A stretch of 64,000 bases of DNA, taken from the NCBI GenBank assembly GCA_048268245.1, contig JBLWVX010000004.1, forward strand, positions 32,001 through 96,000, given 5' to 3'. Under the pieces are notes generated by a model that had not been told where the DNA came from, ran no database searches, and saw nothing but the letters and a program-made list of their open reading frames with translations. A program made the translations under genes and the position numbers. Below are positions 26,061 through 42,772 of this stretch, piece by piece; the first letter of the stretch is position 1; every line of letters begins with the position of its first letter. The DNA is from Arcobacteraceae bacterium (GTDB lineage: Bacteria; Campylobacterota; Campylobacteria; Campylobacterales; Arcobacteraceae).

Positions 26061-28601
26061 ATGAAAAAAACAGTTTTTATACTTTTTACTTTTTTTTATG
26101 CTTTTTTATATGCAAATGAAAAAAGCGAAATATCTATACAGTTTATGTGGCATGATCAGTTTCAATTTGCTGGATTTTATATGGCAAAAGAAAAAGGCTT
26201 TTATGAAAAAACTGGCTTAAATGTAGAGTTTCATAAATATACTTCACAAACCAACCTAGTAAATAGAGTACTTACAAAAAAATCTGATTTTGCAACAGGT
26301 TCAAGTTCACTTATAATTGATAAATCAAATGGTAAAGATATAGTTCTACTTGGTTCTATTTTTCAATCTTCTCCAATGATGCTTTTAGCTTTGAAAAACT
26401 CAAACATCACTAGTTTTGAAGATATTAAAAACAAAAGAATCATGACAATAAAAAACAAACAAAGATTTGCCACTTTACAAGCAATGCTAACAAGTAAAAA
26501 TATATCGATGAATGATATTGTTTTTTTAGATCATAGCTTTAATATTAAAGATTTGATAAACAAAAAAACTGACTTGATGTTAGCATATACTACAAATGAA
26601 CCTTTCTTATTAAAAGAGTTAGGTTATGAAACAATAAGTTTTAATCCAAAAGATTATGGTTTTGATTTTTATGAAGAGTTGATTTTTACATCAAAAGAGT
26701 TTGCTACAAAAAACCCAACTACTGTTAAAAACTTTTATGATGCTAGTATAAAAGGATGGGAATATGCCTTTGATAATATTAATGAAACTGCAAAACTTAT
26801 TTTTGAGAAATATAATCCTCAAAACAAAAGCTTAGAGAGTCTTCTTTTTGAAGCAAAACAAATGAAAAAGCTTGTTTATACAAAAGATAAGAAAATAGGA
26901 ACTATCACTAGAGAAAAAATAACATTAATTGAGAACACTTATAGAATTATGGGTTTACTTAACAAACCTTTAAATATTGATAAGTTAATTTATAAAGAAC
27001 ATATAAAAAGTAAAAACACCCTTTCTCAAAAAGAAATTCAACTTTTAAAAAAGATGAAAACTATAAAAATGTGTATTGATCCTAGTTGGATGCCCTTTGA
27101 AAAAATCCAAAAGGGCAAGCATATAGGTATTTCAGCTGATTTTATAAAACTTATAGAAAAGAAAATAGATACAAAAATAGAACTAGTTCCAACAACAAAT
27201 TGGAGTGAATCTTTAGGGTTTGTTAAAAAAAGATTATGTGATATTATTTCTTTGATTATGCCAACAGAAGATAGAAAACTATTTTTAGACTTTACAACAC
27301 CATATTTAGAAGTACCTATAGTTGTTGCATCTAAACTTAATAACCCTTTTATAAATACAAAAACTGATTTAAAAGGAGAAAAATTAGCTATTGTAAAAGG
27401 TTATGCCTATGCAAAAAAATTAAAATACCAATACCCTTATTTAAATCTCATTGAAGTAGAAAATATAAAAGAGGGATTTGAAAAAATAGAAAATGATGAA
27501 GTTTATGGAGTTATAGGTAGCCTTGGAACAGTTGGATACCATATACAAAAAGAGTATATAGGTCAACTAAAAATTAGTGGTAAGTTTGATGAAAAATGGA
27601 GTTTAAGTATAGGAACAAGAAATGATATTCCTGAACTTAAAACAATATTTGAAAAAGCAATAAATAGTATAGAAGAGAGTAAAAAACAATCTATTTTAAA
27701 TAATTGGATTTCAGTTAACTATGAAAGAAGTTTTAACTATAATCTTTTATATAAAATCATTGCTGCTATTTTTATAATAATATTTTTAGTTTTCTTAAGT
27801 TACAGACAAATTCTTCTTAAAAATTTAAATGAAAAGCTAAAAAAAAAAGTTGCCCTTGAAATAGAAAAAAACAATGAACAAAACCAACTAATGAACCAGC
27901 AAGCAAAACTTGCAGCTATGGGTGAAATGATGGGAAATATTGCTCACCAATGGAGGCAACCTTTATCTTTAATTACCATAACAGCCACAGGTATGAAGTT
28001 TAAAAAAGAACTAAATATCTTAGATGATAAAGAGTTTAATGATTGTATTGATCAAATCGTTACTTCTACAAAATACTTATCAAATACTATAGATGATTTT
28101 AGAAACTTTTTAAATAGAAATAAACCTGCTTTTACATTTAAAACAAAACAGTTAGTTTCTAAAACTCTAAATCTAATAAATGCTCAATTTAAAAACAACG
28201 ATATTGAAATAATTTTAAATGTAGATGATGTAAAAATAACAACTCATGAAAATGAACTTATTCAAGTTTTAATAAATATCTTAAATAATGCAAAAGATGC
28301 CCTTGAAGATAAAGATTATGAAAAACTAATTTTAATAAATATTTATGAAGAAAGAAATAGTGTTTTTATACAAATACAAGATAATGCAAAAGGAATTGAT
28401 GAAAATATTATTTCAAAAATTTTTGAACCATACTTTACCACAAAACACCAAACACAAGGGACAGGTATTGGTTTATATATGAGTAAACAAATGGTACATA
28501 AAACTATGAAAGGAAATCTAAAAGTAGAAAATAAAAACTTCACACATAAACAAAAAGAGTATAAAGGTGCTTTATTTACAATACAGTTAAATAAAAACTA
28601 A
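26061..28601 (+). CDS. Sensor histidine kinase with NMT1/THI5-like and family-3 periplasmic binding domains
   Basis: W.DQFQFAGFYMAKEKGFY; CIDPSWMPFE; IAHQWRQPL; PYFTTK..GTGIGLY. Confidence 0.9.
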   Translation: MKKTVFILFTFFYAFLYANEKSEISIQFMWHDQFQFAGFYMAKEKGFYEKTGLNVEFHKYTSQTNLVNRVLTKKSDFATGSSSLIIDKSNGKDIVLLGSIFQSSPMMLLALKNSNITSFEDIKNKRIMTIKNKQRFATLQAMLTSKNISMNDIVFLDHSFNIKDLINKKTDLMLAYTTNEPFLLKELGYETISFNPKDYGFDFYEELIFTSKEFATKNPTTVKNFYDASIKGWEYAFDNINETAKLIFEKYNPQNKSLESLLFEAKQMKKLVYTKDKKIGTITREKITLIENTYRIMGLLNKPLNIDKLIYKEHIKSKNTLSQKEIQLLKKMKTIKMCIDPSWMPFEKIQKGKHIGISADFIKLIEKKIDTKIELVPTTNWSESLGFVKKRLCDIISLIMPTEDRKLFLDFTTPYLEVPIVVASKLNNPFINTKTDLKGEKLAIVKGYAYAKKLKYQYPYLNLIEVENIKEGFEKIENDEVYGVIGSLGTVGYHIQKEYIGQLKISGKFDEKWSLSIGTRNDIPELKTIFEKAINSIEESKKQSILNNWISVNYERSFNYNLLYKIIAAIFIIIFLVFLSYRQILLKNLNEKLKKKVALEIEKNNEQNQLMNQQAKLAAMGEMMGNIAHQWRQPLSLITITATGMKFKKELNILDDKEFNDCIDQIVTSTKYLSNTIDDFRNFLNRNKPAFTFKTKQLVSKTLNLINAQFKNNDIEIILNVDDVKITTHENELIQVLINILNNAKDALEDKDYEKLILINIYEERNSVFIQIQDNAKGIDENIISKIFEPYFTTKHQTQGTGIGLYMSKQMVHKTMKGNLKVENKNFTHKQKEYKGALFTIQLNKN

Positions 28602-28606
28602 TATTT

Positions 28607-30721
28607 TTAAAAATCACTCTCTTTTAAAAGTGTTGCTAAGACTTTTATATAGGCTTTTTCTATAATACTTTGAGGTTTTGACTTTACCACTAATACACCT
28701 TTTTGCCTATAAGAAAAGCTCTTTTGCAAACTTGTAGGTTTAGCAAAAACTTTATAATAAGCTTTTTGGCTTACTATATTTTCATTTCCATCTTTACTTG
28801 AAGCAATACTTCCTTTATATAAAGAGCTTAACTCTTCAAACTCTATATTTGGCAAAGAGAATGTAGAAATATTTAAAATAATAGTATCCATCTTTTCAAG
28901 GGCATTATCTAACAAAAGTTTGCCTTTTTTACTTTTTTTTATATATGAATAATCCTCTTCTTTGCAATAAGCTATTACCTCAAAAGAGTTTGGATTATAT
29001 ATAGTAAATAAAGGTTGTTTTTTATTTACCCATGTACTTTTTTGTAAGTTTTCATTTAGAGATACTATTCCAGTAAAAGGGGCTTTTATTTGAAGATTTT
29101 TTATATCTTTTCTTAATGACTCTTTTTGCTTCTCAAGTTTTAATAACTGTTCTTCCAAAACAAGCCTATTATCTAAAAGTTTTTTAGCTCCTGCCATACT
29201 ACTTAACCTAAGGTTTAGAAGCTTTATTTTTTTATTTATTTGGCTTAATTCAAAAGTTTTTTTGGGAGATGATAAGATAGCTAAAATTTCCCCTTGTTTT
29301 ACTTCTTTTTGCTCTTTTATATATATTTCTTTGATAAAAGCTTCATTTTTTGCATAAATTTGATTAAATTGTTTTGCTTCTAAAACAGCTGGCATAGAAA
29401 CTTTACTATTCCAAGGATAGATTAAAAAGCCTAAAAATAAAACAAACAAAATAAAACTTGTAATATTTCTCATATTTAAACTCACCTCATTAAACTTTTT
29501 AAACCAAATTTTTAACTCATTATAAATTGGCATTAAAATAAACCAAACAATCTCAACTATAAATAGAATAATACCCAAAACTTTAAATGCAAAGAAATAA
29601 ACAAGCAATGCAATACCTAAAAAAAGAAAAAATCTATATATCCAAGTTGCTATTGCATAAATGATAAAAAACCTTTGTTTATATAAAGGTAAATATTCAG
29701 GAGGATTTATATTCAAACCTAATACATATTTTCTTAAAAACCATCTAGCCATTGCAAAACTTCTTGGCTGTAGATTTTTTGTATTTGTAGCATCACTTAA
29801 AGCATAATAACCATCAAACCTAAGAAAAGGACTTATATTAATAAGTATTGATGTAATCCAACTTGTTGTAGCAATTATAAAAACTATAGTTTTTAAAACT
29901 CCATCAGGTAAAAAAACCCAAAGAAAAGTAGCTATTAAAGCTAAGTATAGCTCTGTTTTTACACCAGCTAAGACTATTTGAAGTCTTTTATACTTTGATT
30001 TTAGTTTCCAAGAATCAGTTGTATCTGTATACATAACAGGAAATAAAACCAAAAAGGCAACACCCATAGTAGGAACTCTTACACCATTTCTTTTTGCTGT
30101 GAAAGCATGACCTAATTCATGCAAAATTTTTACAAAAATGATTGATAAAATATAGTAAAACATACCTTGCATAGAAAAAAGATATGAAAAAGTATTTATA
30201 AACTCTTCATAATTTCTAAGGGCAAATAAAATCCCAATAAATCCTAAAAATAGAACCAAACTCTTATAAAAAGAGCTATAAAAAAAACTAACTTTTGATA
30301 GATTTTTCTCTAAAAACTTATCACTTCTAAATAGTGGTATTTTTATAAAAAGATAGTTTTTTAAAAGCCATTTAAAAGGTGAGTTTTTTATTTTTTTATA
30401 CTCTTCATAAAGTTGCTTTACATCTTTTGAATTATTTGCTTGTAAAAGAGAGTTTTTTCTTAGAAACTCAATAAAAATATCCAAAGAGTTTCCATCAATT
30501 TCATAATCATTTTTTTGTAAAAAATCCAAAAATCTTTCTATTTCTTGATTGTTTTGCCAAAAATTTAAAAGTTTAAAAGCATCATAGGATATATTAAAAT
30601 ATTTATCTTGCAAAGGGTCAAAAATAAGCCAGTTTTTCTCCCCCGTTTCACTAGGCATTGCCTCTAAAAGTTTTAGGTCTTGCCTTAGAGAAGGAAGTAG
30701 TTTTTGCTTATTATTTAGCAT
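28607..30721 (-). CDS. M50 (site-2) metalloprotease fused to a HlyD-like adaptor domain
   Basis: HELGH (HExxH), NISPFLRFDGYY (NxxPxxxxDG), several TMs, C-terminal VKQGEILAIL lipoyl-like segment, coiled coil and IKAPFTG. Confidence 0.88.
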   Translation of the reverse strand: MLNNKQKLLPSLRQDLKLLEAMPSETGEKNWLIFDPLQDKYFNISYDAFKLLNFWQNNQEIERFLDFLQKNDYEIDGNSLDIFIEFLRKNSLLQANNSKDVKQLYEEYKKIKNSPFKWLLKNYLFIKIPLFRSDKFLEKNLSKVSFFYSSFYKSLVLFLGFIGILFALRNYEEFINTFSYLFSMQGMFYYILSIIFVKILHELGHAFTAKRNGVRVPTMGVAFLVLFPVMYTDTTDSWKLKSKYKRLQIVLAGVKTELYLALIATFLWVFLPDGVLKTIVFIIATTSWITSILINISPFLRFDGYYALSDATNTKNLQPRSFAMARWFLRKYVLGLNINPPEYLPLYKQRFFIIYAIATWIYRFFLFLGIALLVYFFAFKVLGIILFIVEIVWFILMPIYNELKIWFKKFNEVSLNMRNITSFILFVLFLGFLIYPWNSKVSMPAVLEAKQFNQIYAKNEAFIKEIYIKEQKEVKQGEILAILSSPKKTFELSQINKKIKLLNLRLSSMAGAKKLLDNRLVLEEQLLKLEKQKESLRKDIKNLQIKAPFTGIVSLNENLQKSTWVNKKQPLFTIYNPNSFEVIAYCKEEDYSYIKKSKKGKLLLDNALEKMDTIILNISTFSLPNIEFEELSSLYKGSIASSKDGNENIVSQKAYYKVFAKPTSLQKSFSYRQKGVLVVKSKPQSIIEKAYIKVLATLLKESDF

Positions 30722-30724
30722 AAA

Positions 30725-32062
30725 CTACCAACCTATATACTGTCTTAGTGAAGTTATAGGCTTTTTAAATAAATAGAAAAATAGTGTTACTTCTTGTGAA
30801 TATATCTTTGCAGTTCCTCTTAATCCAATATTTGGTATCTCTTGGCTCTTTTCATTTTCAAAAGAGGCTATTATTTCATATGATAAAACATTTTGATTAC
30901 TAAGTTGGGGCTTATAAGAAATATATTTAACCTTTGCATCCCATGAATTTAAAGGGTCATTATCAAAGAAAGCTTTTACTTTTGAATTTTTCTCTATAAA
31001 AATAGCATCACTTACAGATAGCATTATTTTAAGTTCTACACTCTTTTTATCAGCTAAATAAAGAATTTTTTCACCTATAATTACAGGTTTTCCTTTCCAT
31101 TCATTTGGACTATGAACTATTACTATTGCATCTTTTTTTGCATAAATCTTTGTTCTTTCCAACTGCTGCTTTGCATACTCTAAAGCTGTTTTTTTAAGCT
31201 CAACTTGTGTTTTTAACTCTGCAATTTTTCTTTTTTGATTTATATCATAAAAACTTGCTTGAGATGAAGTGTGTAATTGAGCTTTTGCAATATCTAAAGT
31301 TTTTTTAGCTACTTCGTACTCATTTTTATAAAAAGTGTCATCTAAAACTACTAATAATTCACCTTTTTTTACCTCATCATTTGGCTTCACTTCTATTTTC
31401 TTTACTGCTGCTTCCAAAGGTGAAGTTACAATAAAAGGATTTTTTGGTATTACTTCAAGAGGTGCAAGAACTGAAAGTTTAACAGGAATAAACATAACTA
31501 AAACAAGCAGTATAAAAACGTATTTAAAATAGCCACTAAAAAACATTGATTTTTTAATTTTACTTCTAAAACTATTTTTTGTCATCGCATATAAAAAATA
31601 AGCATATGAAGAACTAAGATGAGCTATCACTTCTAAATGTTTCTTTTCATAAGTTTCATCATTTAATAAAATCATATAATACTGTATAGAAGCATCATTT
31701 TTTTCTACTTTTATTGGAATAAAAAGAAGATGTTTATAAGAGTACTCATCTAAAACCTTTTTTTCATAAGTATCTAGTTGTTTTTGCGTATCTATTTCAT
31801 GTAGTGTATCACTATTTTTTAAGGCTTTTGTTGCAATAGACTCTAAAGTTTGTACAAAAATAGAGTTTGTATTTATAGTTGCCACATCTGAAATAGCCTC
31901 TACTTTTAGGTTTTGTTTTGAATCAATACAAAAAAATAAAACTGCTTTATATGGTACTAATTTTCTAGTTTCATTTACAATTGTATATCTTAATTCTTCA
32001 TAACTTTGAGTATTTCTACAATTATGCTCTATTTGAAGAAGATCAGCTACATTTAATTTCAA
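30725..32062 (-). CDS. HlyD-family membrane-fusion protein with N-terminal GAF-like region
   Basis: N-terminal ~165-aa soluble domain, one TM, VKPNDEVKKGELLVVLD, coiled coil, GLRGTAKIY. Confidence 0.82.
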   Translation of the reverse strand: MKLNVADLLQIEHNCRNTQSYEELRYTIVNETRKLVPYKAVLFFCIDSKQNLKVEAISDVATINTNSIFVQTLESIATKALKNSDTLHEIDTQKQLDTYEKKVLDEYSYKHLLFIPIKVEKNDASIQYYMILLNDETYEKKHLEVIAHLSSSYAYFLYAMTKNSFRSKIKKSMFFSGYFKYVFILLVLVMFIPVKLSVLAPLEVIPKNPFIVTSPLEAAVKKIEVKPNDEVKKGELLVVLDDTFYKNEYEVAKKTLDIAKAQLHTSSQASFYDINQKRKIAELKTQVELKKTALEYAKQQLERTKIYAKKDAIVIVHSPNEWKGKPVIIGEKILYLADKKSVELKIMLSVSDAIFIEKNSKVKAFFDNDPLNSWDAKVKYISYKPQLSNQNVLSYEIIASFENEKSQEIPNIGLRGTAKIYSQEVTLFFYLFKKPITSLRQYIGW

Positions 32063-32071
32063 AGTTAATCC

Positions 32072-35000
32072 TTATGTATCTTTACTTGAAAATAATTGCG
32101 CTAAATTTTTACCATAAGTCTGCATTTGATTACTTTGACTTGTAACTTGTGATGAGAAATCATTATTTATATGAGATGAAGTAATTTCTATAGCTTCTTC
32201 TTTTAATGCTGATATATCTATTTTTATATTTAATATTCTAATTTTATTATCAAAATCATAGGCTTTTATACTAAACTCCATATTATCTTTCAATAAACCT
32301 TTTAATAAACCTGTTTTTTCATCAAATACCATGGTGATAGGGAGTTTATCTCCATTTACCATTAAAACTTCATATGCTCTTGCTTGTTTTATATCTACAA
32401 TTTTTAATTGCATATAATCACTTACATAAGAGAAATCTTCTATTGTAAGACCTAAAGTCTCATATGCTTCTTTTTGTTGAACTTGAAAGTCAACTTCTCC
32501 TCTTGTTCCTAAAGTAATATCAATAGATTTTAAAATATTAAACTTATTGATATTTGTAAAGACCTGTGTTTCATCTACTGTTTTAAAATCAGTATATCCT
32601 TTAGCTAAAGTATCTAACTTTTGAAAGTCTTGATTAAACTTACTATTTTCTTGTTCTTCAATTGTATTACTTTTTATAACTCCAATTTGTTCAACTTTTT
32701 GTGAGTTGTCAGATATTTCAACCTTATCTACTTGTATAGGTGGTTCTACTTCTTTAGGAGGTTCAAATTCTGGAACTACTACCTTTGGAGGTCCTAAAAC
32801 ATCAATTTGATAAGTTCTTGAAGCTAAAGCTTGCATAGAAGAGGAGTCATAAGTAGTGATTGTAACTTCAAATATTCCTATTTCAAGTGGTCTTCCACTT
32901 ATCAAACCAGTAATTAGGTCATAATTTATTCCCGTGGGAAGTCCTGTTGCTTCATATACTAAATTATCACTCTTATCAACATCTGTAAATAAAAATGAAA
33001 TCTCTTGTGAATAATCTTGTCCATAAGTTATTATTGAGTCAATATTATCATTTGATACTATTGGTGCATCATTTTGCCCACCAATATCTATAGTAATAGT
33101 TTGCATGTCTTTTTGGTTTTGACTATCTGCTATTTCTATATTATATGTGATTTTTATTAACTCATTTTCAGCTAAAAAGTCAAGTTGGGCTTCACTTATA
33201 GTATAATCCCAAGTAATTGTTCCACTACTAGTTCCCTCACCTACACTTGAAATACTAAATGCATTTAATAAATCAATTTCTTGTTGAGTAGTTAAGTTAA
33301 ATATTGTAACACCATCCGCTCTATAGGCTGTAATTGAATCAAAATAGTCATTTATACTAATATTATCACTTAAATCTAAATCATTAAAATTAATTGTTCC
33401 AGTATCATTATAAGTTGAACTCTCTTGAATAGTTCCTGCAATATCTGAACCAGTTATAGTAGGAGTATCATTTGCTCCTTGTATTACTATTTTAACATCT
33501 TGTGTTGAAGTTTGTCCATCATTATCAGTTACAGTTATTGTAAATATTGCTGTTACTGTTTCACCTTGAGCTAAAAAATTTATATCCCCTTCACTTATAC
33601 TATAATCCCAGGTAATTGTTCCAGTGTTTGTATTTGAGGAGAGATTAGTTATTGAAAAAGCATTTTCTATTGCATCTCTTTGAGTAGTACTTAAAGTAAA
33701 ATCTTGGTTATTACTATCCTTAGCAATTACATCTTTTACATCAAAACTTCCAAAGGGTTTATCATCTTTATCTATATCAGAAAAATCAATAGAGCCACTA
33801 TCACTTAAAGTTGAGCCTTCTTGTATCTGACCTTCTACATCTACAGCAGTTATTAAAGGAACATCATTTTCACCTACTATTAATATAGTGATATCTTGAG
33901 TTGAAAACTCACCTTGGGCATCTTGTACTCTTATTTGAAAAGTTAAAGTAACCTCATCTCCTTGACTTAAAAAGTCCAATTGACTTTCTGTTAGAGAGTA
34001 GTCCCATTGAATCTCTGAACTGTTTGAATTAGGAGTTAATTGAGTAATAGAAAAAGCATTTTCTAAAATAGCTTGATTTGAACCACTTATGCTAATTGTA
34101 TTACCAGTTGAATCAACTGCTTGAATATTAGTTAGACTTTCACTTATACTTGGTTGGTCTGTTTTATCTATATCACTAAAGCTAATCTTTCCACTATCAC
34201 TTAATGTTGAGCCCTCAGATACTCTACCCTCATCATCTATAACCTGAATAGTTGGCTTATCATTTGTTCCTTTTATCTGTATTGTAATATCTTGTTGTCT
34301 TGTTCCACCATTATTATCATTTACTTCTATGGTAAAAACAGCTGTTATTACTTCTGCTGTTCCCAAAAATTCAATATCACTTTGAGAGATTGTAAAATCC
34401 CAATTTATAGAGCCAGTATTGCTATTTGGATTTGCATTTGTAAAAGAAAAGGCATCTAAAATAACTTGTTCTTCTTGTGAACTTAAGTTATAACCATTTA
34501 AACTTGTGCTTACTAAAGAAGCAGATATTTTATCTGTTGTATCTTCATCTACAAAAGTTATTACTCCATTTTGAGAAACTACACCTTTATCAACAATTTC
34601 ACCTGTACTAGTAGAACTATTTACACTAACAGTATCGTTTACACCTTGTATGTTGATAGTAATTACTTGATTAACACTTGCTCCACTATTATCAGTTATT
34701 TGGATTGTATACTTTACTATTACACTTTCATTATTGGCCAAGAAATCAAGCTTATTATTAGATATTGCATAACTCCAAGAAAAAGTTCCTGTATTTGAAT
34801 TTATACTACTGTTAGTAAAATCAAAACTGTTGATTATCTCATTTTGCTGAGTTTGAGTTAAAGAAAGAGGAGTTACTCCATCACTTTCATAAGCTTCAAA
34901 ACTATTTGATATATAACTTGCAGATAAAGTATCATTCAAGTCCTTATCGCTTACATCAATATCTCCAGAAGCACTAATTGTTCCATTTTCAACTAAATTT

Positions 35001-36487
35001 GAGTTATCATCTGCATTATCAATAATAGGAGTATCATTAACTCCAATTATTTCTAAAACTGTTTTAGAAATATTACTATCGTTTACGCCATCATTAACTT
35101 TCCAAGATAATGTCCTTTGATTAAAAGCTGTTTCAGGAGAATCATTTGTTGAGTAAAATCTTATTGCTTTTAAAGCATTTTTATACTGTTCAACAGTAGC
35201 AGTACCACTAAGATTTAGAACACCCGATGATGAATCATATGAAGATAATATATTTCCATAAAGTGTATTATCATCATTGTTAAACTCCAGCATATCACCA
35301 CTTGTAAAGCCACTTGTTATTGAGATTTGAGCACTTTGTAAATCTGCTCCATCGTCAGTTAAAATCACTAGATTTACTAATTCAGAAGATGGACCATCTT
35401 CTGTATATGTAAATGTAGTTATATCCATACCACCCAACTTAATCTCAGCAACTTCTCCTGCACCACCACCTCTAATTTTATTAAATTCAACTCGATAGTA
35501 TCTAAATACTTCCGTATTGGAGAACTCTACTTTAACTTCTTCCCCTCTATTTGTACTAGGGTTTATATCCATAGAAACAATTAAGTTACTACTAAAGTCT
35601 GACCTATCATTTGAACCATAAATAGCAAATTTAATTGGATCTAAATCATCAGAACCAGTTGATGTAGTAATAGCAAAAGAGTTTACTATATAAGGATTTA
35701 AAGCATCAAAATCAAAACTTGTTCCTGAGCCTAAAGGAAAAGAAAAAGAAGTATTTACATCATTGTCAAAAGCGAAAGATGCGCTATTGTCTGAAAAGTC
35801 ACTTGCTGGAATTGAATCATAATTTGTTGAAGTTGAGAGATATGGAGCATCATTTGCTAAAAGGGTTTCATAGTTATCAATACTAATAGCCTGACTCTCA
35901 ATAACTCCACTTTTATACTCTAAGTTCCAATCACCATTTAAAAGTTTATCACCTGTCAAGTCATCTGATGCTGCTACATCTGCACTTGTTAAAGATGAGA
36001 TTTTATCCACGAAATCTTTACCTTGATTGTTTTGACCAATAGAACATCCATAAAGTAAAATATCAGCTTCTTTACTTAAACTATTTGAAATATTTTTTAA
36101 AGTTTGTTCATAATCTTGAATATTTTGTGAGTTTATACTTCCACTTGAAAAAAGTAATTCTCCCTCTTTACCATGGGATATTATATGTAAAGTATCAATA
36201 TCATTTTTATCTTCTAAAATAGTCTCAATTTGCTCTAAGACATCACTTTTGTCATCTAATATATATACTTCCGTATTTTCATCAAGTTGCTTTAATATCT
36301 CTTCTTTATTTTCAACTTGACTATCTATAAATACTATTTCTTTACTTTTATTTTCTTGTGGGGTAGTATCAGGTGTGTCATTGTTTTCAAAGCTATTATT
36401 ATCTAAAACATCAACAGCAGTTGTAACTGCTGCTCCATCAAATAAAACTCTAGGTTCTAAGGCACTTATTAGTGGATTTCGTTTCAT
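32072..36487 (-). CDS. Large secreted/adhesin-like protein: LEPRxLF leader, DUF4347, discoidin-like domain, VCBS/cadherin-like repeats, Ig-like C-terminus
   Basis: ALEPRVLFDG; IVFIDSQV..LHIISHG..ILLYGC..ADVAASDDLTG..GDWNLE (DUF4347); five GxNDxP repeats; GLPTGINYD..TGLISGRP. Confidence 0.88.
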   Translation of the reverse strand: MKRNPLISALEPRVLFDGAAVTTAVDVLDNNSFENNDTPDTTPQENKSKEIVFIDSQVENKEEILKQLDENTEVYILDDKSDVLEQIETILEDKNDIDTLHIISHGKEGELLFSSGSINSQNIQDYEQTLKNISNSLSKEADILLYGCSIGQNNQGKDFVDKISSLTSADVAASDDLTGDKLLNGDWNLEYKSGVIESQAISIDNYETLLANDAPYLSTSTNYDSIPASDFSDNSASFAFDNDVNTSFSFPLGSGTSFDFDALNPYIVNSFAITTSTGSDDLDPIKFAIYGSNDRSDFSSNLIVSMDINPSTNRGEEVKVEFSNTEVFRYYRVEFNKIRGGGAGEVAEIKLGGMDITTFTYTEDGPSSELVNLVILTDDGADLQSAQISITSGFTSGDMLEFNNDDNTLYGNILSSYDSSSGVLNLSGTATVEQYKNALKAIRFYSTNDSPETAFNQRTLSWKVNDGVNDSNISKTVLEIIGVNDTPIIDNADDNSNLVENGTISASGDIDVSDKDLNDTLSASYISNSFEAYESDGVTPLSLTQTQQNEIINSFDFTNSSINSNTGTFSWSYAISNNKLDFLANNESVIVKYTIQITDNSGASVNQVITINIQGVNDTVSVNSSTSTGEIVDKGVVSQNGVITFVDEDTTDKISASLVSTSLNGYNLSSQEEQVILDAFSFTNANPNSNTGSINWDFTISQSDIEFLGTAEVITAVFTIEVNDNNGGTRQQDITIQIKGTNDKPTIQVIDDEGRVSEGSTLSDSGKISFSDIDKTDQPSISESLTNIQAVDSTGNTISISGSNQAILENAFSITQLTPNSNSSEIQWDYSLTESQLDFLSQGDEVTLTFQIRVQDAQGEFSTQDITILIVGENDVPLITAVDVEGQIQEGSTLSDSGSIDFSDIDKDDKPFGSFDVKDVIAKDSNNQDFTLSTTQRDAIENAFSITNLSSNTNTGTITWDYSISEGDINFLAQGETVTAIFTITVTDNDGQTSTQDVKIVIQGANDTPTITGSDIAGTIQESSTYNDTGTINFNDLDLSDNISINDYFDSITAYRADGVTIFNLTTQQEIDLLNAFSISSVGEGTSSGTITWDYTISEAQLDFLAENELIKITYNIEIADSQNQKDMQTITIDIGGQNDAPIVSNDNIDSIITYGQDYSQEISFLFTDVDKSDNLVYEATGLPTGINYDLITGLISGRPLEIGIFEVTITTYDSSSMQALASRTYQIDVLGPPKVVVPEFEPPKEVEPPIQVDKVEISDNSQKVEQIGVIKSNTIEEQENSKFNQDFQKLDTLAKGYTDFKTVDETQVFTNINKFNILKSIDITLGTRGEVDFQVQQKEAYETLGLTIEDFSYVSDYMQLKIVDIKQARAYEVLMVNGDKLPITMVFDEKTGLLKGLLKDNMEFSIKAYDFDNKIRILNIKIDISALKEEAIEITSSHINNDFSSQVTSQSNQMQTYGKNLAQLFSSKDT
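33080..35044 (-). repeat. Five tandem ~130-aa VCBS/cadherin-like coding repeats
   Basis: GxND(x)P starts near 35044, 34645, 34270, 33874, 33478, 33079 (periods ~375-399 nt); each has F.D.D..D, W.Y.I....LDFL and TI...D..G motifs. Confidence 0.85.
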
Positions 36488-36496
36488 ATTAAGCCT

Positions 36497-37219
36497 TTAT
36501 TTTTGCTCATTAATCTGAAATATTGCTGTTGCACTCATTCCTGGTATTATTTTATCATAAGGTTTTTCTAATGATACTCTAACTAAAACAGTCTGACTAA
36601 TAGGGTCAACTACAGAACCTATTTCTTTTACTACTGCATTTATAGATGTTTGAGTTTCATCCACATTTAAAACAACTCTCATATCTTTTTTTAGAACTGA
36701 TAACCATGTTGAAGGAACAAAAGTTTTTGCTTCCAAACTCTCTGTTGAAATTATCTCTAATATCTGCTCATTTGGCTTTACACTTTGATGTTGAGAAACT
36801 TCTCTACTTACTACTCTTCCATTGTAAGGGGCATAAATATCACATCTTTTTACATTTATAGAAGCTATTTTATACTCTGCTTCTTGCTTTCTAAACTCTT
36901 CTCTTGCAATATCAACTTCAAACTTTCCAATTGATTTAAAGCTTTCTAGTTTTTTATTCTTTTTATATTTTAAATATGCAATATTTTTTTCAATAGCTGC
37001 TTTTGCTTTTTGAGCTTTATAAATATCACAATTTAGTTTTACTAAAAGGTCACCTTTTTTAAAAGAATCTCCTTCTATTTTTTTTAAATACGTAATATTT
37101 CCAGCTAATTCACTTGATAAAATAGTTTTATCATAAGAAGTAATAACAGCCCTTGAACTAATCTCATCTTGTGCAAAAATATATGTGATTAAAAATCCTA
37201 TTAAAAATATCTTTTTCAT
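36497..37219 (-). CDS. RND/HlyD-type periplasmic adaptor with signal peptide
   Basis: EGDSFKKGDLLV, IYAPYNGRV, VDPISQT, PGMSA. Confidence 0.85.
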   Translation of the reverse strand: MKKIFLIGFLITYIFAQDEISSRAVITSYDKTILSSELAGNITYLKKIEGDSFKKGDLLVKLNCDIYKAQKAKAAIEKNIAYLKYKKNKKLESFKSIGKFEVDIAREEFRKQEAEYKIASINVKRCDIYAPYNGRVVSREVSQHQSVKPNEQILEIISTESLEAKTFVPSTWLSVLKKDMRVVLNVDETQTSINAVVKEIGSVVDPISQTVLVRVSLEKPYDKIIPGMSATAIFQINEQK

Positions 37220-37222
37220 TCT

Positions 37223-39178
37223 CTACTCTTTTATATCCATCACTAAATTACTAATATATCCAAAAGATGTTTTATACCAAACATCTTTATTGTTGGATAT
37301 TATCTCTTCAATATTTATTTCTTGGTTTTTAGGAAGTAAGAAAAGAACAGGGCTTTGCCAGTTTGCTTGGGATCTAATATTTGCATTTTTAAAAGCTATT
37401 CCTTTAAAAATAGTTTTTTTTATCTCTTTTTTACTTGCTAGACTTAAGTTATCTTCTTTTTCATCTTTTATAAATACAGCACTTTTATAAATAAATCCAA
37501 GTGGTGTCTCTATCCATTTTCCATATTTATTTTCAAACTCTCTTAAAACTTTAACTTTTCTATTTTTTAGTAAAACAACACTGTACATACTATCTTTATG
37601 AGGTTCTTTTCTTAGATATACATTTTGTGTTGTTTGTGCAGTTTTTACTAACTTTTCAAGTTTAGCTTTTTTAATTTCTTCTTTTTTCTTTTGGATTTTT
37701 TTAGGCTCTTTTACTTTTATAACACTATTTTTTTCTAAAGTCTCTTTTCCTATATCCTCATAAGTTCCTATTGAAGCAAAAACTCTACCATAGCTATTTT
37801 GTACATTTGCATAAGATGAAGAGTGTCTAAGCAAAGCTAAGATATAGTTTAGTTTCTCTTTTATATAAATCAACCTACTGTTCATATTTAGTTTATTTGT
37901 AACTTCTGTTAATTTATAAATCTCTTGAGCTACATCTAAATACTTTTTTGAAAGTTTATACTCTTTTTTTGATTGTTCAAAATCTGCAAGGGATAAATGA
38001 ACCTGTGATAATACTGCCATTGAAATAGCAAGTTTTTGCTCTTTAGCAAGGGCTATTTTTGTTTTTGCTATTTTTTGACTTGTATTTGCTTTAAAGATAT
38101 TTAATAAATTCCAAGAGATAGTTGCACCATATGAGGTCCAATTGTTATTTAATAAATAGTCATTATTATCATAAGAAATACCACTGTTTAATTTAATTCC
38201 TGGAAGCATTTGCAAGATTGCTCTTGTAGTTTCTTTATGAGAAATTCTTTGTTTATATCTACTCTCTAAAATCTCTGGTCTATTCTCTAAAGCCATTATT
38301 TCCATTTGTTTTAAACCAAGATTTAATTTTGGAAGTTCATAATCAGTCTTTATTTCTTGGGCTAAAGTAAAATGTGTTCCAGCTTTTAAACCCATAAGTT
38401 CAGCTAACTCAACCTTAGCATTCATAAGATTTCTTTCTAAAGATTGAAGAGATCTTAATACTTCAAGTAAATCCCTTTGATATGCCAAAGACTCCATTGG
38501 TGAGTTGATTCTAAGTTTTTTAATCTTATTTGAGTCGTTTAAAGCTACTTGAACATCTTTCATCATAGGAACAATTTTTTTAAGTAAAGCTTGAGCTGAT
38601 GCAGCTTTATAGTAAGTTCTTCTTACTTCTTGTACTATATTGTGAATTACTTTTCTCTCATTTTGTTTTGCCATTAAGTATTTATCAGCTTGTTGTTGAG
38701 CTTTTACATAAGATAATCCAAAATCCAAAACATTCCAACTAAAAGAGATATCTGCATCAATTTTTTCTTTGTCTTGAGATACCGAGTATGATGGTTCACC
38801 AGTTATTGGCTCAGGGTTACCATTACTAAAAGAAGTACTAGCAGATGCAGCGTACTCATCTCTTTTTGAGTATCCTGCACTTGTAGTTAGATTTGGTAAC
38901 ATATCATAATATACTAAATCAATTTGTTGTTTTGCTAAGGCTGTTTGCATTAACTTGATTTTATTTCTTACATTATTTTTTAAGGCTTTATCTATTGCTT
39001 CATCTATGGTAATAGGTTTTGTAATAACAGGGGAAATTCTATTTATTAGTTTTAAATCTTGATTAGCTTTTAGGGATATTTCTTCTTTACTTAGAGGCTG
39101 GGGAGTTACTGTACATCCACTTATAAAAAAAGTAATTAATAGTAAAAGTAGTGTTGATTTTTTCTTTAAAAACCCCAT
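37223..39178 (-). CDS. TolC-family outer-membrane channel lipoprotein with two C-terminal SH3b-like domains
   Basis: Lipobox ISGC; AIDKALKNN, SWNVLDFG, ALENRPE, ISWNLL; tails NVYLRKEP..W...GFI and NANIRSQA..WYKT..GYI. Confidence 0.87.
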   Translation of the reverse strand: MGFLKKKSTLLLLLITFFISGCTVTPQPLSKEEISLKANQDLKLINRISPVITKPITIDEAIDKALKNNVRNKIKLMQTALAKQQIDLVYYDMLPNLTTSAGYSKRDEYAASASTSFSNGNPEPITGEPSYSVSQDKEKIDADISFSWNVLDFGLSYVKAQQQADKYLMAKQNERKVIHNIVQEVRRTYYKAASAQALLKKIVPMMKDVQVALNDSNKIKKLRINSPMESLAYQRDLLEVLRSLQSLERNLMNAKVELAELMGLKAGTHFTLAQEIKTDYELPKLNLGLKQMEIMALENRPEILESRYKQRISHKETTRAILQMLPGIKLNSGISYDNNDYLLNNNWTSYGATISWNLLNIFKANTSQKIAKTKIALAKEQKLAISMAVLSQVHLSLADFEQSKKEYKLSKKYLDVAQEIYKLTEVTNKLNMNSRLIYIKEKLNYILALLRHSSSYANVQNSYGRVFASIGTYEDIGKETLEKNSVIKVKEPKKIQKKKEEIKKAKLEKLVKTAQTTQNVYLRKEPHKDSMYSVVLLKNRKVKVLREFENKYGKWIETPLGFIYKSAVFIKDEKEDNLSLASKKEIKKTIFKGIAFKNANIRSQANWQSPVLFLLPKNQEINIEEIISNNKDVWYKTSFGYISNLVMDIKE

Positions 39179-42200: not shown

Positions 42201-42772
42201 GTTACAGATACCATAATTGGAATATTTGGTGCCACATCATTTAAAGCATGTAAACCTGCTTTAATTTGTAAGGGATCTTGACAAGTTTCAAGTAAGAACA
42301 CATCAGTTCCACCATCAGCCAGTCCTTGTGCCATAACTTTATAACCTTCATACATTTCATCATAAGTTATATGTCCAAGTGATGGTAACTTTGTTCCAGG
42401 TCCAATTGATCCTAATACATATCTTGGTTTTTGAGGTGTACTAAACTTATCACAAGAATCTTTTACAAGTTTTGCTCCAAGTCTTGATAATTCATATGAT
42501 GTTTGAGGAATTTGATATTCATCCAATACCCATGGCATAGAACCAAAAGTATTTGTTGAAATCAAATCAGCCCCAGCTTCTAAATAATCATCATGAATCT
42601 TTTCTAAAACATGAGGAGCAGTCAAGTTTAAAAGTTCATTACAACCTTCTAGATTGATTCCCTCATATTCCCACTCTTTATCTTTAATCTCTGCTAATTG
42701 AAGCTGTGTTCCCATAGCTCCATCAATAACTAGCACTCTTTCATTTATTATACTTTTTATTTCTTCTATCAT
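39293..42772 (-). CDS. metH: Cobalamin-dependent methionine synthase
   Basis: DGAMGTQLQ, GGCCGTTPEHI, IGERSNATGSKAF, GDVHDVGKNLV, RYSPGYAACPDL. Confidence 0.98.
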   Translation of the reverse strand: MIEEIKSIINERVLVIDGAMGTQLQLAEIKDKEWEYEGINLEGCNELLNLTAPHVLEKIHDDYLEAGADLISTNTFGSMPWVLDEYQIPQTSYELSRLGAKLVKDSCDKFSTPQKPRYVLGSIGPGTKLPSLGHITYDEMYEGYKVMAQGLADGGTDVFLLETCQDPLQIKAGLHALNDVAPNIPIMVSVTIELSGTMLIGTDAMTIAAILEPFNILSLGFNCGTGPKQVHKHVKTLSEICKFPISVHANAGLPQNKGGKTYYPMQPKEFTELTKEFLEFNGVSFLGGCCGTTPEHIKALVADIEGIIPKKPSGFLKASLASLFNVVPLKQDPAPLLIGERSNATGSKAFRELLKANNYEGTLTVGQQQVRAGAHVIDVSVGFAGRDEREDMDKVVGLYSQKVSLPLMPDSTQIPALEAALKQIGGRPIINSVNLEDGEDKFDEICRLAKKFGAALVCLVIDEIGMAKTLERKLEVAERIYDLCVNRHGFNPEDLVFDMLTFTIGSGDEEYRTAGVETLEAIKEFQIRHPEVGTTLGLSNISFGLDQKARIYLNSIYLDHCVKAGLTTAIVNVKHILPLNKISDEDRKACDDLIFNNQENGDPLFAFIDHFANVGDMEEQSDEEYQKLEPVEKVKKLLLDGDKDRMLPLVEELRHDVNPEIIVNEWLIDGMKIIGELFGSGQMQLPFVLQSAETMKATVDSLNPYLPKKEKASETVLVLGTVKGDVHDVGKNLVDIILSNNGFKVINIGIKADLNDFIIAVKENKAQAIGMSGLLVKSTAVMKENLETLQKEGIDIPVLLGGAALTKGFVNDYCRPIYDGPIFYCRDAFDGVVSMQRIEEGDLDNTALAADLIEEIDTSDRVAKEEVEIPPYEEIELPEPTEFTFPPLWDRVAKTGDEVDKELVFKWINHRVLFRQRWGYKRGKQKSTDFIKHEEEVVKPLYEELKEELLDKNIFDPIAIYEYYPCMSHDNKLYIFDKKYLFNSEEEARNNKPSLDEAIKVLEFPRQKRKPFRCIADYFANDRLDVVGFTLASAGLKVADYEREYYNKGEFNKYYQIHGLGVELAEALAEVLHKQIRLDLDIVPKEGPTLNDVQMKQYVGCRYSPGYAACPDLAMNRDIFDLLDPEKFGIELSETFQMHPEQTTCAIVVPHHDAKYYNI

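Follow-up and report, generated by a model that had tools for sequence, protein, structure and literature searches.

A conserved five-gene set that probably exports a giant tagged protein without the usual ABC pump

Type I secretion systems (T1SS) for giant adhesins and RTX proteins include HlyB-HlyD-TolC and, with LapA, LapB-LapC-LapE. The colicin V type system, CvaAB-TolC, combines a peptidase-containing ABC transporter with TolC. YydH-type peptide proteases are leader-dependent intramembrane site-2 proteases (S2P), and SpoIVFB removes the N-terminal pro-sequence from cytoplasmic pro-sigmaK.

The locus described here, part of a 64,000-nucleotide stretch of DNA (the window), shares parts with each of these systems. 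As in a T1SS, a TolC-family duct and HlyD-family adaptors, whose fold matches MacA, EmrA and HlyD, lie beside a giant repeat protein that has no Sec signal. Unlike a T1SS, the locus has no ABC transporter, three different adaptors instead of one, a putative signal that is a conserved N-terminal tag rather than a C-terminal sequence, no RTX repeats, and an S2P protease with a RiPP-recognition element (RRE) as the inner-membrane component. As in CvaAB-TolC, a leader-recognising protease appears to be built into the inner-membrane part of the exporter, with an adaptor and TolC completing the route; the protease is however a zinc S2P with an RRE rather than a C39 cysteine protease, the ABC domain is absent and the cargo is giant. 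The M50 core and the N-terminal region can be aligned with the daptide protease (NF041824) over residues 25-395, but the score of 141.3 bits is far under that family's cut-off of 300. The S2P fold (Z 9.8) and the logic of pro-sequence removal recall SpoIVFB and pro-sigmaK. Unlike the daptide, YydH and SpoIVFB proteases, the protein carries a fused periplasmic adaptor and has a genetic link to TolC, and its presumed substrate has 1,000 to >3,000 residues, whereas those systems act on a peptide or a sigma factor.

A related locus was described in silico by Kamneva, Poudel and Ward in 2015 (PLoS One; PMC4452313). Their "type I secretion-related" locus encodes a secondary SecA_DEAD protein, proposed as the ATPase, and like the present one it has GAF-HlyD, Peptidase_M50 with HlyD, HlyD/biotin-lipoyl and sometimes OEP proteins, without an ABC transporter; their proposal, too, makes the M50 protein the component in the membrane (PMC4452313). 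The secondary SecA_DEAD gene that defines their locus is absent here, and in sections 16-17 of their paper no cargo, tag or RRE domain is mentioned. The original prediction, which rated this the best candidate for an undescribed system, has to be qualified to that extent, a SecA_DEAD/GAF-HlyD/M50/HlyD relative being on record (PMC4452313).

The five genes and their products

Five minus-strand open reading frames, of 651, 240, 1471, 445 and 704 aa in gene order, form one co-oriented block with intergenic gaps of 3, 9, 9 and 3 bp. Upstream, on the same strand, lies metH (39293..42772), and a convergent histidine kinase gene (26061..28601) marks the downstream border. Motif scans found no Walker-type GxxxxGK[ST], LSGG[QE] or GGxGxD RTX motif in any of the five proteins, and Pfam and NCBIfam gave no match among them to ABC_tran or another NTPase family. 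A Kyte-Doolittle scan found no hydrophobic N-terminal segment in the cargo. The gene order and spacing, the lack of ATPase motifs and a cargo with neither RTX repeats nor a Sec signal had all been read from the letters beforehand, and the present calls agree, coordinates included.

The 704-aa protein (28607..30721, minus strand) is a fusion of an RRE, an M50 site-2 protease and an adaptor. It matches Peptidase_M50 (44.3 bits, cut-off 27.2) and HlyD_3/HlyD_D23. By hydrophobicity and its AlphaFold model (pLDDT 85.3) it is the sole polytopic inner-membrane protein of the set, which supports the inner-membrane role first assigned to it. It has more than 7242 homologues; clustering at 50% identity (E<=1e-30) gives 3119 clusters.

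Residues 6-96 of the fusion (30434..30706, minus strand) form three strands followed by three helices in the predicted model. VIA-align matches this region to lasso B1 with its leader (6jx3_B; Z 8.9, rmsd 3.0, 82 residues aligned), PqqD (5sxy; Z 8.6, rmsd 2.6, 85 aligned), TbiB1 (5v1u; Z 8.6) and other RiPP enzymes, and Foldseek finds TbiB1 (5v1v_A) with probability 1.00 and a TM-score of 0.69 on the target. Sequence support is weak: the PqqD-family match NF050069 (E 6e-4) is under its cut-off, PqqD is matched by 2 of 36 members at E about 0.015, and no RRE came up in a PDB profile search. Judged by its predicted fold, this region is a PqqD-like RRE, a new finding here and a plausible cargo receptor that the original prediction overlooked.

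The M50/S2P membrane domain follows at about residues 125-435 (29417..30349, minus strand), with the S2P core at residues 182-314 by fold comparison. VIA-align matches it to RseP (7w6z, Z 10.6), SpoIVFB (8vjl, Z 9.8) and mjS2P (3b4r, Z 9.1). The two motifs named in the original prediction are located, HELGH at residues 201-205 and NISPFLRFDG at 295-304; H201, E202, H205, N295, P298, D303 and G304 are invariant in alignments of 32 and of 33 sequences. R363 and E390 are membrane-embedded and also invariant. The C-terminal domain (residues 438-704; 28610..29410, minus strand) is a periplasmic adaptor (MFP) with a short alpha-hairpin. Foldseek matches it to MacA (3fpp, E 1.2e-12), EmrA, AcrA and MexA, and its profile matches MFP chains in the PDB.

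The 445-aa protein (30725..32062, minus strand; HlyD_3, 32.9 bits) has a GAF-like cytoplasmic domain (residues 1-170; 31553..32062), one transmembrane segment (hydrophobic residues 172-206) and a periplasmic adaptor. The "GAF-like" label holds through the orthologues: Pfam GAF is matched by 10 of 33 orthologous N-domains (best E 2.8e-7) and GAF_2 by 6, and the N-domain of the locus's own protein matches neither model. GAF clusters also surfaced as a lead for this N-domain in a feature search.

The 651-aa protein (37223..39178, minus strand) is a TolC/NodT-type outer-membrane factor matching Pfam OEP in two stretches (135.3 bits); it scores under the cut-offs of both outer_NodT and type_I_sec_TolC in NCBIfam. 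Its N-terminus is of the lipoprotein type, with a lipobox-like ISGC (…FFISGC) read off the translation. A C-terminal extension, roughly residues 500-651 (37226..37681), carries two bacterial SH3 (SH3_3) stretches, which score 30.4 bits with the tail alone (cut-off 27) and 25.5 bits with the whole protein. The small periplasmic adaptor (240 aa; 36497..37219, minus strand) matches HlyD_3 (62.9 bits) and HlyD_D23 (52 bits) and exceeds the cut-off of RND_mfp TIGR01730 (115.6 bits versus 94.9). Its N-terminus resembles a signal peptide, and it contains no cysteine.

The 1471-aa repeat protein (32072..36487, minus strand), the presumed cargo, consists of a LEPR-XLL tag, an acidic linker, a DUF4347 domain, a discoidin-like segment, VCBS/cadherin-like repeats (five VCBS stretches), a He_PIG match and a C-terminal tail, according to Pfam and NCBIfam. 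It is the only DUF4347 protein of the genome and the only ORF above 400 aa with an LExRxx[FL]D[GA]A tag. The tag, ALEPRVLFDGAAVTTAVD, spans residues 9-26 (36410..36463) with LEPR starting at residue 10, and matches NF012209 at 19.2 bits (cut-off 17). Across 27 aligned cargo N-termini L10, E11, R13, D17 and A19 are invariant. The consensus, ALExRxxFDGAA, includes a conserved di-alanine, and L[ED]xR occurs near the N-terminus in 27 of 29 DUF4347-type neighbours. The tag is also present on a Pseudomonas cargo without a DUF4347 match and on an E. coli plasmid cargo. The DUF4347 domain (residues 51-201; 35885..36337; PF14252, 171.9 bits) has an invariant cysteine in a YGC motif and a nearly invariant histidine in 27 sequences.

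The tail (32075..32158) has a hydrophobic-[STND]-x-[QK]-hydrophobic motif, here FSSQV, 28 residues before the end. This motif is loosely conserved and was defined post hoc. Of 37 cargos, 22 have it in their final 48 residues, usually 20-35 residues before the end, compared with a mean of 1.4 and a maximum of 5 of 37 in random internal windows. Given this tail, the N-terminal tag may not be the sole signal, or may not be the export signal.

Recurrence of the gene set

The neighbourhoods of 80 loci from other species were compared; ranked best among 570 confirmed stretches, these are the query's closest relatives and do not sample the family at random. They come from Proteobacteria including SAR11, Nitrospirota, Desulfobacterota, Planctomycetota and E. 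coli plasmids. In 67 of 70 loci the gene directly upstream of the fusion encodes the GAF-adaptor, the small adaptor has a homologue in 52 of the 66 with enough upstream DNA, and a TolC homologue is present in 44 of the 57 whose upstream DNA extends for 4.5 kb or more. Of the 33 loci with full flanks, 32 have an ORF that is at least 900 aa long or contains DUF4347. An ABC nucleotide-binding domain is found inside none of the 80 modules; ABC domains occur within 10 kb on either side at 14 loci, always outside the module. No SecA-like ORF was seen in 82 related loci. Clustering all ORFs of the 80 loci, with two example members judged per cluster, gave no further recurrent family besides shadow ORFs.

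Synteny is kept in another Campylobacterota genus (L086), in an Azospirillum plasmid, in E. coli IncF plasmids, where the module lies between IS elements, and the module is found in 1.3-Mb SAR11 genomes. In a phylum sample the M50-adaptor occurs in 2 of 201 genomes, and DUF4347 is above cut-off in the same two. Among 151 genomes from the family of a Pseudomonas, relatives and hence not independent, 51 have both, 11 the M50-adaptor only, 1 DUF4347 only and 88 neither. Because the gene set recurs in other genomes, the five-gene arrangement is more than chance; it has been conserved as a module and did not arise by accident at this one site. Both the absence of ABC genes from the modules of M50-HlyD fusions and the fusions' co-occurrence with LEPRxLL/DUF4347 cargo, which the original prediction had proposed to look for, are thus observed, the latter in 51 of the 52 DUF4347-positive genomes of the family sample.

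Proposed export route and alternatives

The five genes most probably encode a dedicated machine for leader-guided, TolC-dependent export and processing of a giant protein (probability about 65%). The cargo, which lacks a Sec signal, would be synthesised in the cytoplasm, and its N-terminal tag, ALEPRVLFDGAA, would be bound by the cytoplasmic RRE of the 704-aa protein, in the way that RiPP enzymes bind leader peptides. The S2P domain, with its catalytic residues all conserved, would clip the tag, or hold it and clip it later. Three adaptors (the one at the C-terminus of the fusion, the GAF-anchored one and the small soluble one) would form a periplasmic conduit to the TolC-type lipoprotein, through which the polypeptide would reach the cell surface, with the GAF-like domain probably acting as gate or regulator of the machine. 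Energy might come from the proton-motive force acting via R363/E390, from an extracellular folding ratchet or from the housekeeping SecA. We know of no S2P protease that forms a protein-conducting pore. The parts, their folds, the conserved gene set, the absence of ABC and SecA-like genes from this subfamily and the genome-wide co-occurrence with tagged giant proteins are observed; tag-RRE binding, tag cleavage, passage through the M50/adaptor assembly, the threading direction and the way the machine is powered are inferred.

Modelling residues 1-440 of the fusion in complex with residues 1-60 of the cargo lends weak support to tag-RRE binding. The model reached an ipSAE of 0.47 (runs 0.44-0.53), compared with 0.00 for the best of three controls; the runs share at least 47% of their contacts, the partner has a pLDDT of at least 38, and no contacts are reported. 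Of 157 solved complexes used as a benchmark, 116 reach the mark, as do 2 of 215 mismatched pairs, but only 18 of the 157, together with both passing mismatches, lie at or below 0.60; these counts are only a rough guide here since own alignments were used.

The five genes have no NTPase, and it is possible, if rather less likely, that the module is only the receptor, protease and periplasmic/outer-membrane conduit, with an unlinked motor powering the inner-membrane crossing. This motor would be either the housekeeping SecA, in place of the dedicated SecA-like ATPase that the sister subfamily carries, or one of the genome's two canonical T1SS ABC transporters. Sister loci carry the secondary SecA_DEAD gene, the proposed ATPase (PMC4452313), near a divergent M50 gene: a second SecA adjoins only this divergent subfamily (E about 1e-65, versus about 1e-160), in 3 of the 151 genomes, 1-2 kb from the M50 match (G207, G255, G353). 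By analogy, an ATPase may be needed for translocation here too. In the present genome SecA_DEAD occurs once, in an 878-aa frame that is presumably the housekeeping SecA, and two canonical OEP/C39-ABC/HlyD clusters lie elsewhere, whose transporters could in principle serve the cargo. Against an unlinked motor, no ATPase gene travels with this subfamily, even in the IS-flanked E. coli plasmid and SAR11 copies, a single SecA_DEAD match is found in 59 of the 62 M50-adaptor-positive genomes of the 151-genome sample, and the cargo has neither a Sec-type signal nor RTX repeats. The canonical clusters have their own ducts, and one lies beside its own adhesin, of the LapA/Calx-beta kind, so that the M50 module, with a duct and adaptors to itself, counts as a distinct system. 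The original reading survives in its conserved ABC-less module, its cargo partner and its M50 membrane component. Its "self-contained" machine stays a hypothesis, in view of the sister subfamily's ATPase and the two T1SS clusters.

An unlikely reading is that the module is a retention-and-release device, not an exporter, with the cargo threaded C-terminus first by its tail and the tag held by the RRE until the M50 domain cuts it, freeing the adhesin under GAF control, a logic analogous to LapD/LapG-LapA. In LapA, LapG acts at a di-alanine. The di-alanine in the tag, the folded DUF4347 domain directly after it, the tail motif and the GAF sensor domain fused to an adaptor would all fit, but the motif is post hoc and missing in 15 of 37 cargos, an inner-membrane translocator not otherwise provided by the locus would still be required, and in RiPP systems the pairing of an RRE with a protease serves maturation rather than tethering.

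Processing or export of a small leader-bearing peptide (RiPP/bacteriocin), or a signalling protease or efflux pump, with the giant gene unrelated, is very improbable: in NCBIfam the fusion scores best against the daptide intramembrane metalloprotease and its homologues are named "putative peptide zinc metalloprotease", but that match is far under its cut-off, neither a RiPP maturase nor a gene for a small precursor recurs among the 80 loci, and tagged giant genes recur beside the module and co-occur with it genome-wide.

Operon anatomy and the M50 fusion

The module is probably an envelope exporter of the TolC/adaptor kind, with no known precedent for its inner-membrane component or for the way it would recognize its cargo. 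Its five genes form a minus-strand operon as originally predicted, with the ORFs at exactly the predicted coordinates and gaps of 3, 9, 9 and 3 bp between them. metH lies upstream on the same strand and a histidine kinase gene lies downstream in convergent orientation. Gene 1 encodes a 651-aa TolC-family protein (OEP, 135.3 bits) with a lipobox-like ISGC near the N-terminus. Its C-terminal extension of ~150 aa (37226-37681, minus strand), possibly a cell-wall tether, carries two SH3_3 stretches, which score 30.4 bits in a scan of the tail by itself. Gene 2 encodes a 240-aa small adaptor with a signal-peptide-like start and matches to HlyD_3, HlyD_D23 and, above the cut-off, RND_mfp. Gene 3 encodes the 1471-aa cargo (32072-36487, minus strand), which contains DUF4347, five VCBS stretches and He_PIG. 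Gene 4 encodes a 445-aa GAF-like adaptor made up of an N-terminal domain, one hydrophobic segment (residues 172-206) and the adaptor part. Gene 5 encodes the 704-aa M50 fusion (28607-30721, minus strand), where Peptidase_M50 is followed by an adaptor. Pfam HlyD_3/HlyD_D23 matches occur in three of the five proteins. The N-domain of the 445-aa protein itself has no GAF match in Pfam or NCBIfam; the GAF assignment comes from its orthologues, since 10 of 33 orthologous N-domains match Pfam GAF.

The motifs quoted in the original prediction, HELGH and NISPFLRFDG, are present at residues 201 and 295 of the fusion, and the claimed absence of Walker A, LSGGQ and GGxGxD holds for all five proteins, the cargo having no GGxGxD repeats. 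In addition, none of the five matches an NTPase family.

The AlphaFold model of the 704-aa fusion is confident, with a pLDDT of 85.3. Since Foldseek on the full-length model revealed the adaptor alone, residues 1-440 were folded separately, again with confidence (pLDDT 86.9, pTM 0.81). By structure search the C-terminal part has a periplasmic adaptor fold (MacA 3fpp, E 1.2e-12; also EmrA, AcrA and MexA). Residues 182-314 superimpose on site-2 proteases (S2Ps), with an RseP orthologue, 7w6z, at Z 10.6 (rmsd 3.2, 131 aligned), SpoIVFB with pro-sigmaK at Z 9.8 and the M. jannaschii S2P (mjS2P) at Z 9.1. The protein thus has the family match (PF02163, 44.3 bits vs a threshold of 27.2), the zinc-site motifs and the S2P core fold of a Peptidase M50. 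Alignments of 32 and 33 homologues show no variation at the zinc-site residues H201, E202, H205, N295, P298, D303 and G304. Also invariant in the same alignments are the charged residues R363, K380, E390 and E402, located on two long hydrophobic helices beyond the S2P core (residues 346-408; 29498-29686, minus strand). These helices are candidates for proton coupling or for lining the path. Membership of the daptide protease family NF041824 was considered and rejected; the fusion scores 141.3 bits over residues 25-395, under the cut-off of 300.

The N-terminal residues 6-96 form a small domain of strands (17-21, 30-35 and 40-45) followed by helices (46-53, 61-70 and 77-89). It superimposes on a lasso-peptide B1 protein with leader, 6jx3_B (Z 8.9, rmsd 3.0, 82 aligned of 85), on PqqD, 5sxy (Z 8.6, rmsd 2.6, 85 of 94 aligned), and on TbiB1, 5v1u (Z 8.6), values to be read knowing that Z 7-8 is common for a best match. 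Further matches are to the RiPP recognition element (RRE) parts of PbtF, a cyanobactin heterocyclase (LynD-type), CteB, TbtB, MccB, MibB and NisB. Foldseek returned the same RRE set with probabilities of 0.98-1.00 and weak E-values. The domain is assigned as an RRE because many unrelated RiPP enzymes match through this same small domain over nearly its full length. The signal in sequence profiles is faint. The NF050069 PqqD-family model gives E 6e-4 and 19.7 bits, far under its cut-off of 110, and Pfam PqqD PF05402 matches 2 of 36 orthologues (best E 0.015). Compared as a profile with PDB sequences, the alignment of the RRE region matched no RRE and gave chance-level PREX1 matches only. The structural assignment of this domain had been missed in the original prediction. 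As modeled, the fusion is an RRE, then an S2P, then an adaptor, with the RRE predicted on the cytoplasmic side and the adaptor in the periplasm.

A promoter scan of the region was uninformative in this AT-rich DNA (60 sites vs 62.3±8.2 in shuffles). Terminator-like sites number 8 vs 2.6±1.9 in shuffles, and none lies at the operon end. The convergent neighbor (26061-28601, plus strand) codes for a histidine kinase of 846 aa, whose two periplasmic solute-binding domains are NMT1/THI5-like and SBP_bac_3. The gene ends 5 bp from the M50-adaptor stop, and no association of such a kinase with the module was seen in the other loci.

Conservation of the module

The M50-adaptor family is large, with more than 7242 matching proteins in the set of scored candidates, and the 50%-identity cluster representatives include 11356 with E<=0.001 and 3119 with E<=1e-30. 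The best 150 representatives are almost all ~700 aa and match end to end. Loci were compared in the best 80 of 570 confirmed stretches (600 scanned), one genome per species. They come from at least five phyla, with sources in Campylobacterota, in Alpha-, Beta- and Gammaproteobacteria (including several Pelagibacteraceae), in Nitrospirota (including Nitrospira defluvii), in Desulfobacterota and in a Scalindua.

The ORFs of these loci were classified by profiles built from the window's proteins. A GAF-type adaptor lies directly upstream of the M50 fusion in 67 of the 70 loci with at least 1.5 kb upstream, the small adaptor is found in 52 of 66 related loci, and a TolC homologue in 44 of the 57 loci with at least 4.5 kb upstream. 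Where TolC was missed, the flank is mostly filled by a cargo gene of several kilobases. Of the 33 loci with full flanks, 32 have a DUF4347 ORF or an ORF of 900 aa or longer. Sixteen ABC proteins encoded in the window's genome served to build the ABC nucleotide-binding-domain profile, which, as a positive control, finds 46 ORFs there; inside the module it finds none in any of the 80 loci. The lack of an ABC gene noted in the original prediction extends to all 80 best-matching modules, in which TolC, adaptors and large cargo recur. ABC domains lie within ±10 kb in 14 of the 80 loci, all of them 183 bp to 9 kb outside the module; nine of these 14 loci have them on the opposite strand. Clustering of all ORFs revealed no further recurrent family in the 80 loci; the remainder are scattered ABC ATPases and shadow ORFs, which overlap module genes in other frames, as judged from two example members per cluster.

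Individual loci show the same arrangement. A locus from a second Campylobacterota genus (L086) has a gene order identical to the window, and an Azospirillum plasmid is annotated with a DUF4347 protein, TolC, an RND adaptor, HlyD and HlyD consecutively. The E. coli IncFIA/FIB plasmid NZ_CP081687.1 (loci L002 and L083) encodes TolC, three adaptors and an Ig-like protein of 4459 aa that bears the tag, flanked by IS5-like ISKpn26 and IS1 elements. Of 5426 complete E. coli genomes, 24 carry the module, and 21 of its 25 places there are plasmid-borne. Given this distribution, the E. coli module is mobile.

The M50-adaptor and DUF4347 also occur together across genomes. Two of 201 sampled genomes of the window's phylum, its own genome and one other (G131), have the M50-adaptor (E<=1e-20); the same two have DUF4347 above the cut-off, and a third has a sub-threshold match. 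A second sample consisted of 151 genomes from the family of a module-bearing Pseudomonas. Both proteins are present in 51 and both absent from 88, with 11 having the M50-adaptor alone and one DUF4347 alone, counts to which a p-value would add no weight since relatives are not independent. The sole DUF4347-only genome is 1.7 Mb. Copy number and coordinates track as well; a pair of M50-adaptors in a genome is often accompanied by a pair of DUF4347 genes at a distance of a few kilobases. At least some of the M50-only genomes have a module type whose cargo is tagged and lacks DUF4347.

The cargo tag and the proposed export logic

The cargo N-terminus reads MKRNPLISALEPRVLFDGAAV. Residues 9-26 match the LEPR-XLL model NF012209 with 19.2 bits against a cut-off of 17, a score reached only when the first 60 residues are scanned alone. 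L[ED]xR is found near the start of 27 of 29 neighboring ORFs with a DUF4347-type N-terminus, the two exceptions being one MEPRYLL and one fragment. In an alignment of 27 cargo N-termini, L10, E11, R13, D17 and A19 are invariant; a variable acidic linker comes after the consensus, ALExRIMFDGAAVATA. The tag is also present on a 3099-aa Pseudomonas cargo without a DUF4347 match and on the 4459-aa 'Ig-like' protein of the E. coli plasmid; thus the tag, not DUF4347, is the common feature of the cargos. A hairpin with a 9-bp stem and a T-rich run (36413-36434, minus strand) lies within the codons for the AAVTTAV stretch of the tag and could be a by-product of Ala/Val/Thr codons.

DUF4347 (PF14252; 35885-36337, minus strand) scores 171.9 bits vs a threshold of 24.6 and is present in a single copy in the genome. 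Across 27 sequences the Cys of its YGC motif never varies and the His of IDAIH hardly does, a pattern reminiscent of a Cys-His pair. A Cys-His protease was considered on conservation, by which the neighboring 'SHG' His is replaced in 4 of the 27. A solved small DUF4347 protein, PDB 9qpe chain G, is an Hcp-loaded T6SS cargo of P. aeruginosa, so DUF4347 also travels another secretion route. Behind DUF4347, cargo residues 232-349 (35441-35794, minus strand) form a discoidin-like (F5/8 type C) segment with 27.5 bits, just below the Pfam cut-off of 28.2, and may serve as a head that binds carbohydrate or a surface.

On the likeliest reading the parts make up a machine guided by the leader, with tag binding, cleavage, inner-membrane route, threading direction and energy source all putative. 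The cytoplasmic RRE of the fusion would be positioned to bind the invariant tag, and the S2P active site beside it would be positioned to cut the tag. The three adaptors and the TolC lipoprotein would form the path outward, with the GAF-like domain as a putative regulatory input. Modeling fusion residues 1-440 together with cargo residues 1-60 yielded an ipSAE of 0.47 (range 0.44-0.53 over three runs), against 0.00 for the highest of three controls; contact agreement between runs was at least 47% and the partner pLDDT at least 38. In the calibration, 116 of 157 solved complexes came up to the ipSAE mark, as did 2 of 215 mismatches; 18 of the 157 and both of these mismatches did so at 0.60 or under, counts that hold roughly for a model built on our own alignments. 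The complex model therefore points weakly to binding of the tag by the fusion.

The C-terminal tail of the cargo (32075-32158, minus strand) was compared with the C-termini of 36 other cargos and is loosely conserved. A motif chosen post hoc, hydrophobic-[STND]-x-[QK]-hydrophobic, occurs in the last 48 residues of 22 of the 37 tails vs 1.4 of 37 random internal windows. It lies mostly 20-35 residues from the end and is followed by an amphipathic stretch ending about ...LLxxL. The simple picture of an N-terminal export signal is complicated by this loose motif on many cargos and by the folded DUF4347 domain directly behind the tag. Both features keep a rival alive, a LapA-like logic where the cargo would be exported C-terminus first, retained by its N-terminus and released by regulated proteolysis, although the 22 of 37 count carries the post hoc choice of the motif with it.

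Energy source and relation to known secretion systems

Like type I secretion, the module combines adaptors and TolC with a giant protein lacking a Sec signal. It has, however, no ABC_tran or ABC_membrane match, and because the ABC transporter, the defining component of a T1SS, is absent, it does not belong to that class. According to a review abstract (PMC8277102), characterized TolC-dependent machines all have an energized ABC, RND or MFS transporter in the inner membrane. In the module, an intramembrane protease with a leader-binding domain takes the position of the energized transporter, and the window's subfamily has no ATPase. Literature searches found no experimental work on the module, no account of DUF4347 or LEPR-XLL that appeared mechanistic (including passages of PMC13723633 and PMC8262886), and no paper combining peptidase M50 with TolC and HlyD, or site-2 protease either with HlyD and a type I secretion adhesin or with TolC and a periplasmic adaptor. 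In two papers that matched M50 along with HlyD and TolC, 'M50' was residue M507 or part of a DOI string; for PqqD combined with HlyD, TolC or adhesin, no paper with PqqD was among the matches listed.

The nearest described loci are those of Kamneva, Poudel and Ward (2015), who reported in silico that secondary SecA_DEAD proteins occur in conserved loci with GAF-HlyD, a weakly recognizable Peptidase_M50 with HlyD domains, HlyD/biotin-lipoyl proteins, sometimes OEP, and no ABC (PMC4452313). They proposed that the SecA-like protein supplies the ATPase and that the M50 protein might form the pore, and the passages describing these loci identify no cargo, tag or RRE (PMC4452313). The window likewise has GAF-HlyD, M50(-HlyD) and HlyD/biotin-lipoyl proteins together without ABC, but it lacks the secondary SecA_DEAD and therefore falls outside the SecA_DEAD-linked locus type. 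Its genome has one SecA_DEAD match, in an 878-aa frame. With this SecA as the phmmer query, no SecA-like ORF was found in any of 82 loci. Of five other carrier genomes, four contain a single SecA_DEAD above the cut-off; Nitrospira defluvii has a second, far from the locus. Among the 151 genomes, an intact second SecA_DEAD is found only in three (G207, G255 and G353), each 1-2 kb from a divergent M50 match with E about 1e-65 vs about 1e-160 for the window type. The three SecA_DEAD matches of another sampled genome (G332) look like pieces of a split SecA. Since the intact second SecA_DEAD of these 151 genomes lies beside the divergent M50 subfamily, there are two sister module types, and the window's is the commoner one, without a dedicated ATPase.

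There is a substantial chance that the module is a new class of secretion system. The fuller reading, to which we give roughly one chance in three, is a distinct double-membrane secretion class of S2P-adaptor, adaptors and TolC where RiPP-type leader recognition would select giant proteins of the surface through a universal tag at their N-terminus, with no dedicated NTPase and the drive supplied by proton-motive force via the R363/E390 helices or by folding outside. Genes that adjoin the module are among the largest of several ecologically important groups (SAR11, Nitrospira, Azospirillum, pseudomonads). An ATPase-free class, if true, would export the LEPR-XLL giants of thousands of species, among them SAR11, Nitrospira, pseudomonads and Azospirillum, and those of some E. 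coli plasmids. If the module does export LEPR-XLL proteins, many genes annotated merely 'HlyD family' or 'site-2 protease' would gain a function, and a sequence tag would predict surface giants. There would also be a clear question, by what means a chain thousands of residues long passes the inner membrane, which is testable directly by genetics in cultivable hosts.

An unlinked motor could instead drive translocation, either the housekeeping SecA or one of two C39-ABC/HlyD/OEP clusters elsewhere in the genome. These canonical T1SS clusters, each with OEP, a C39-like ABC and HlyD, lie on the short contigs C52 (locus L084) and C56 (locus L085), one of them beside a LapA/Calx-beta protein. The LapA/Calx-beta repeat gene at the end of that cluster is cut by the contig end, and the assembly therefore probably broke inside giant adhesin genes.
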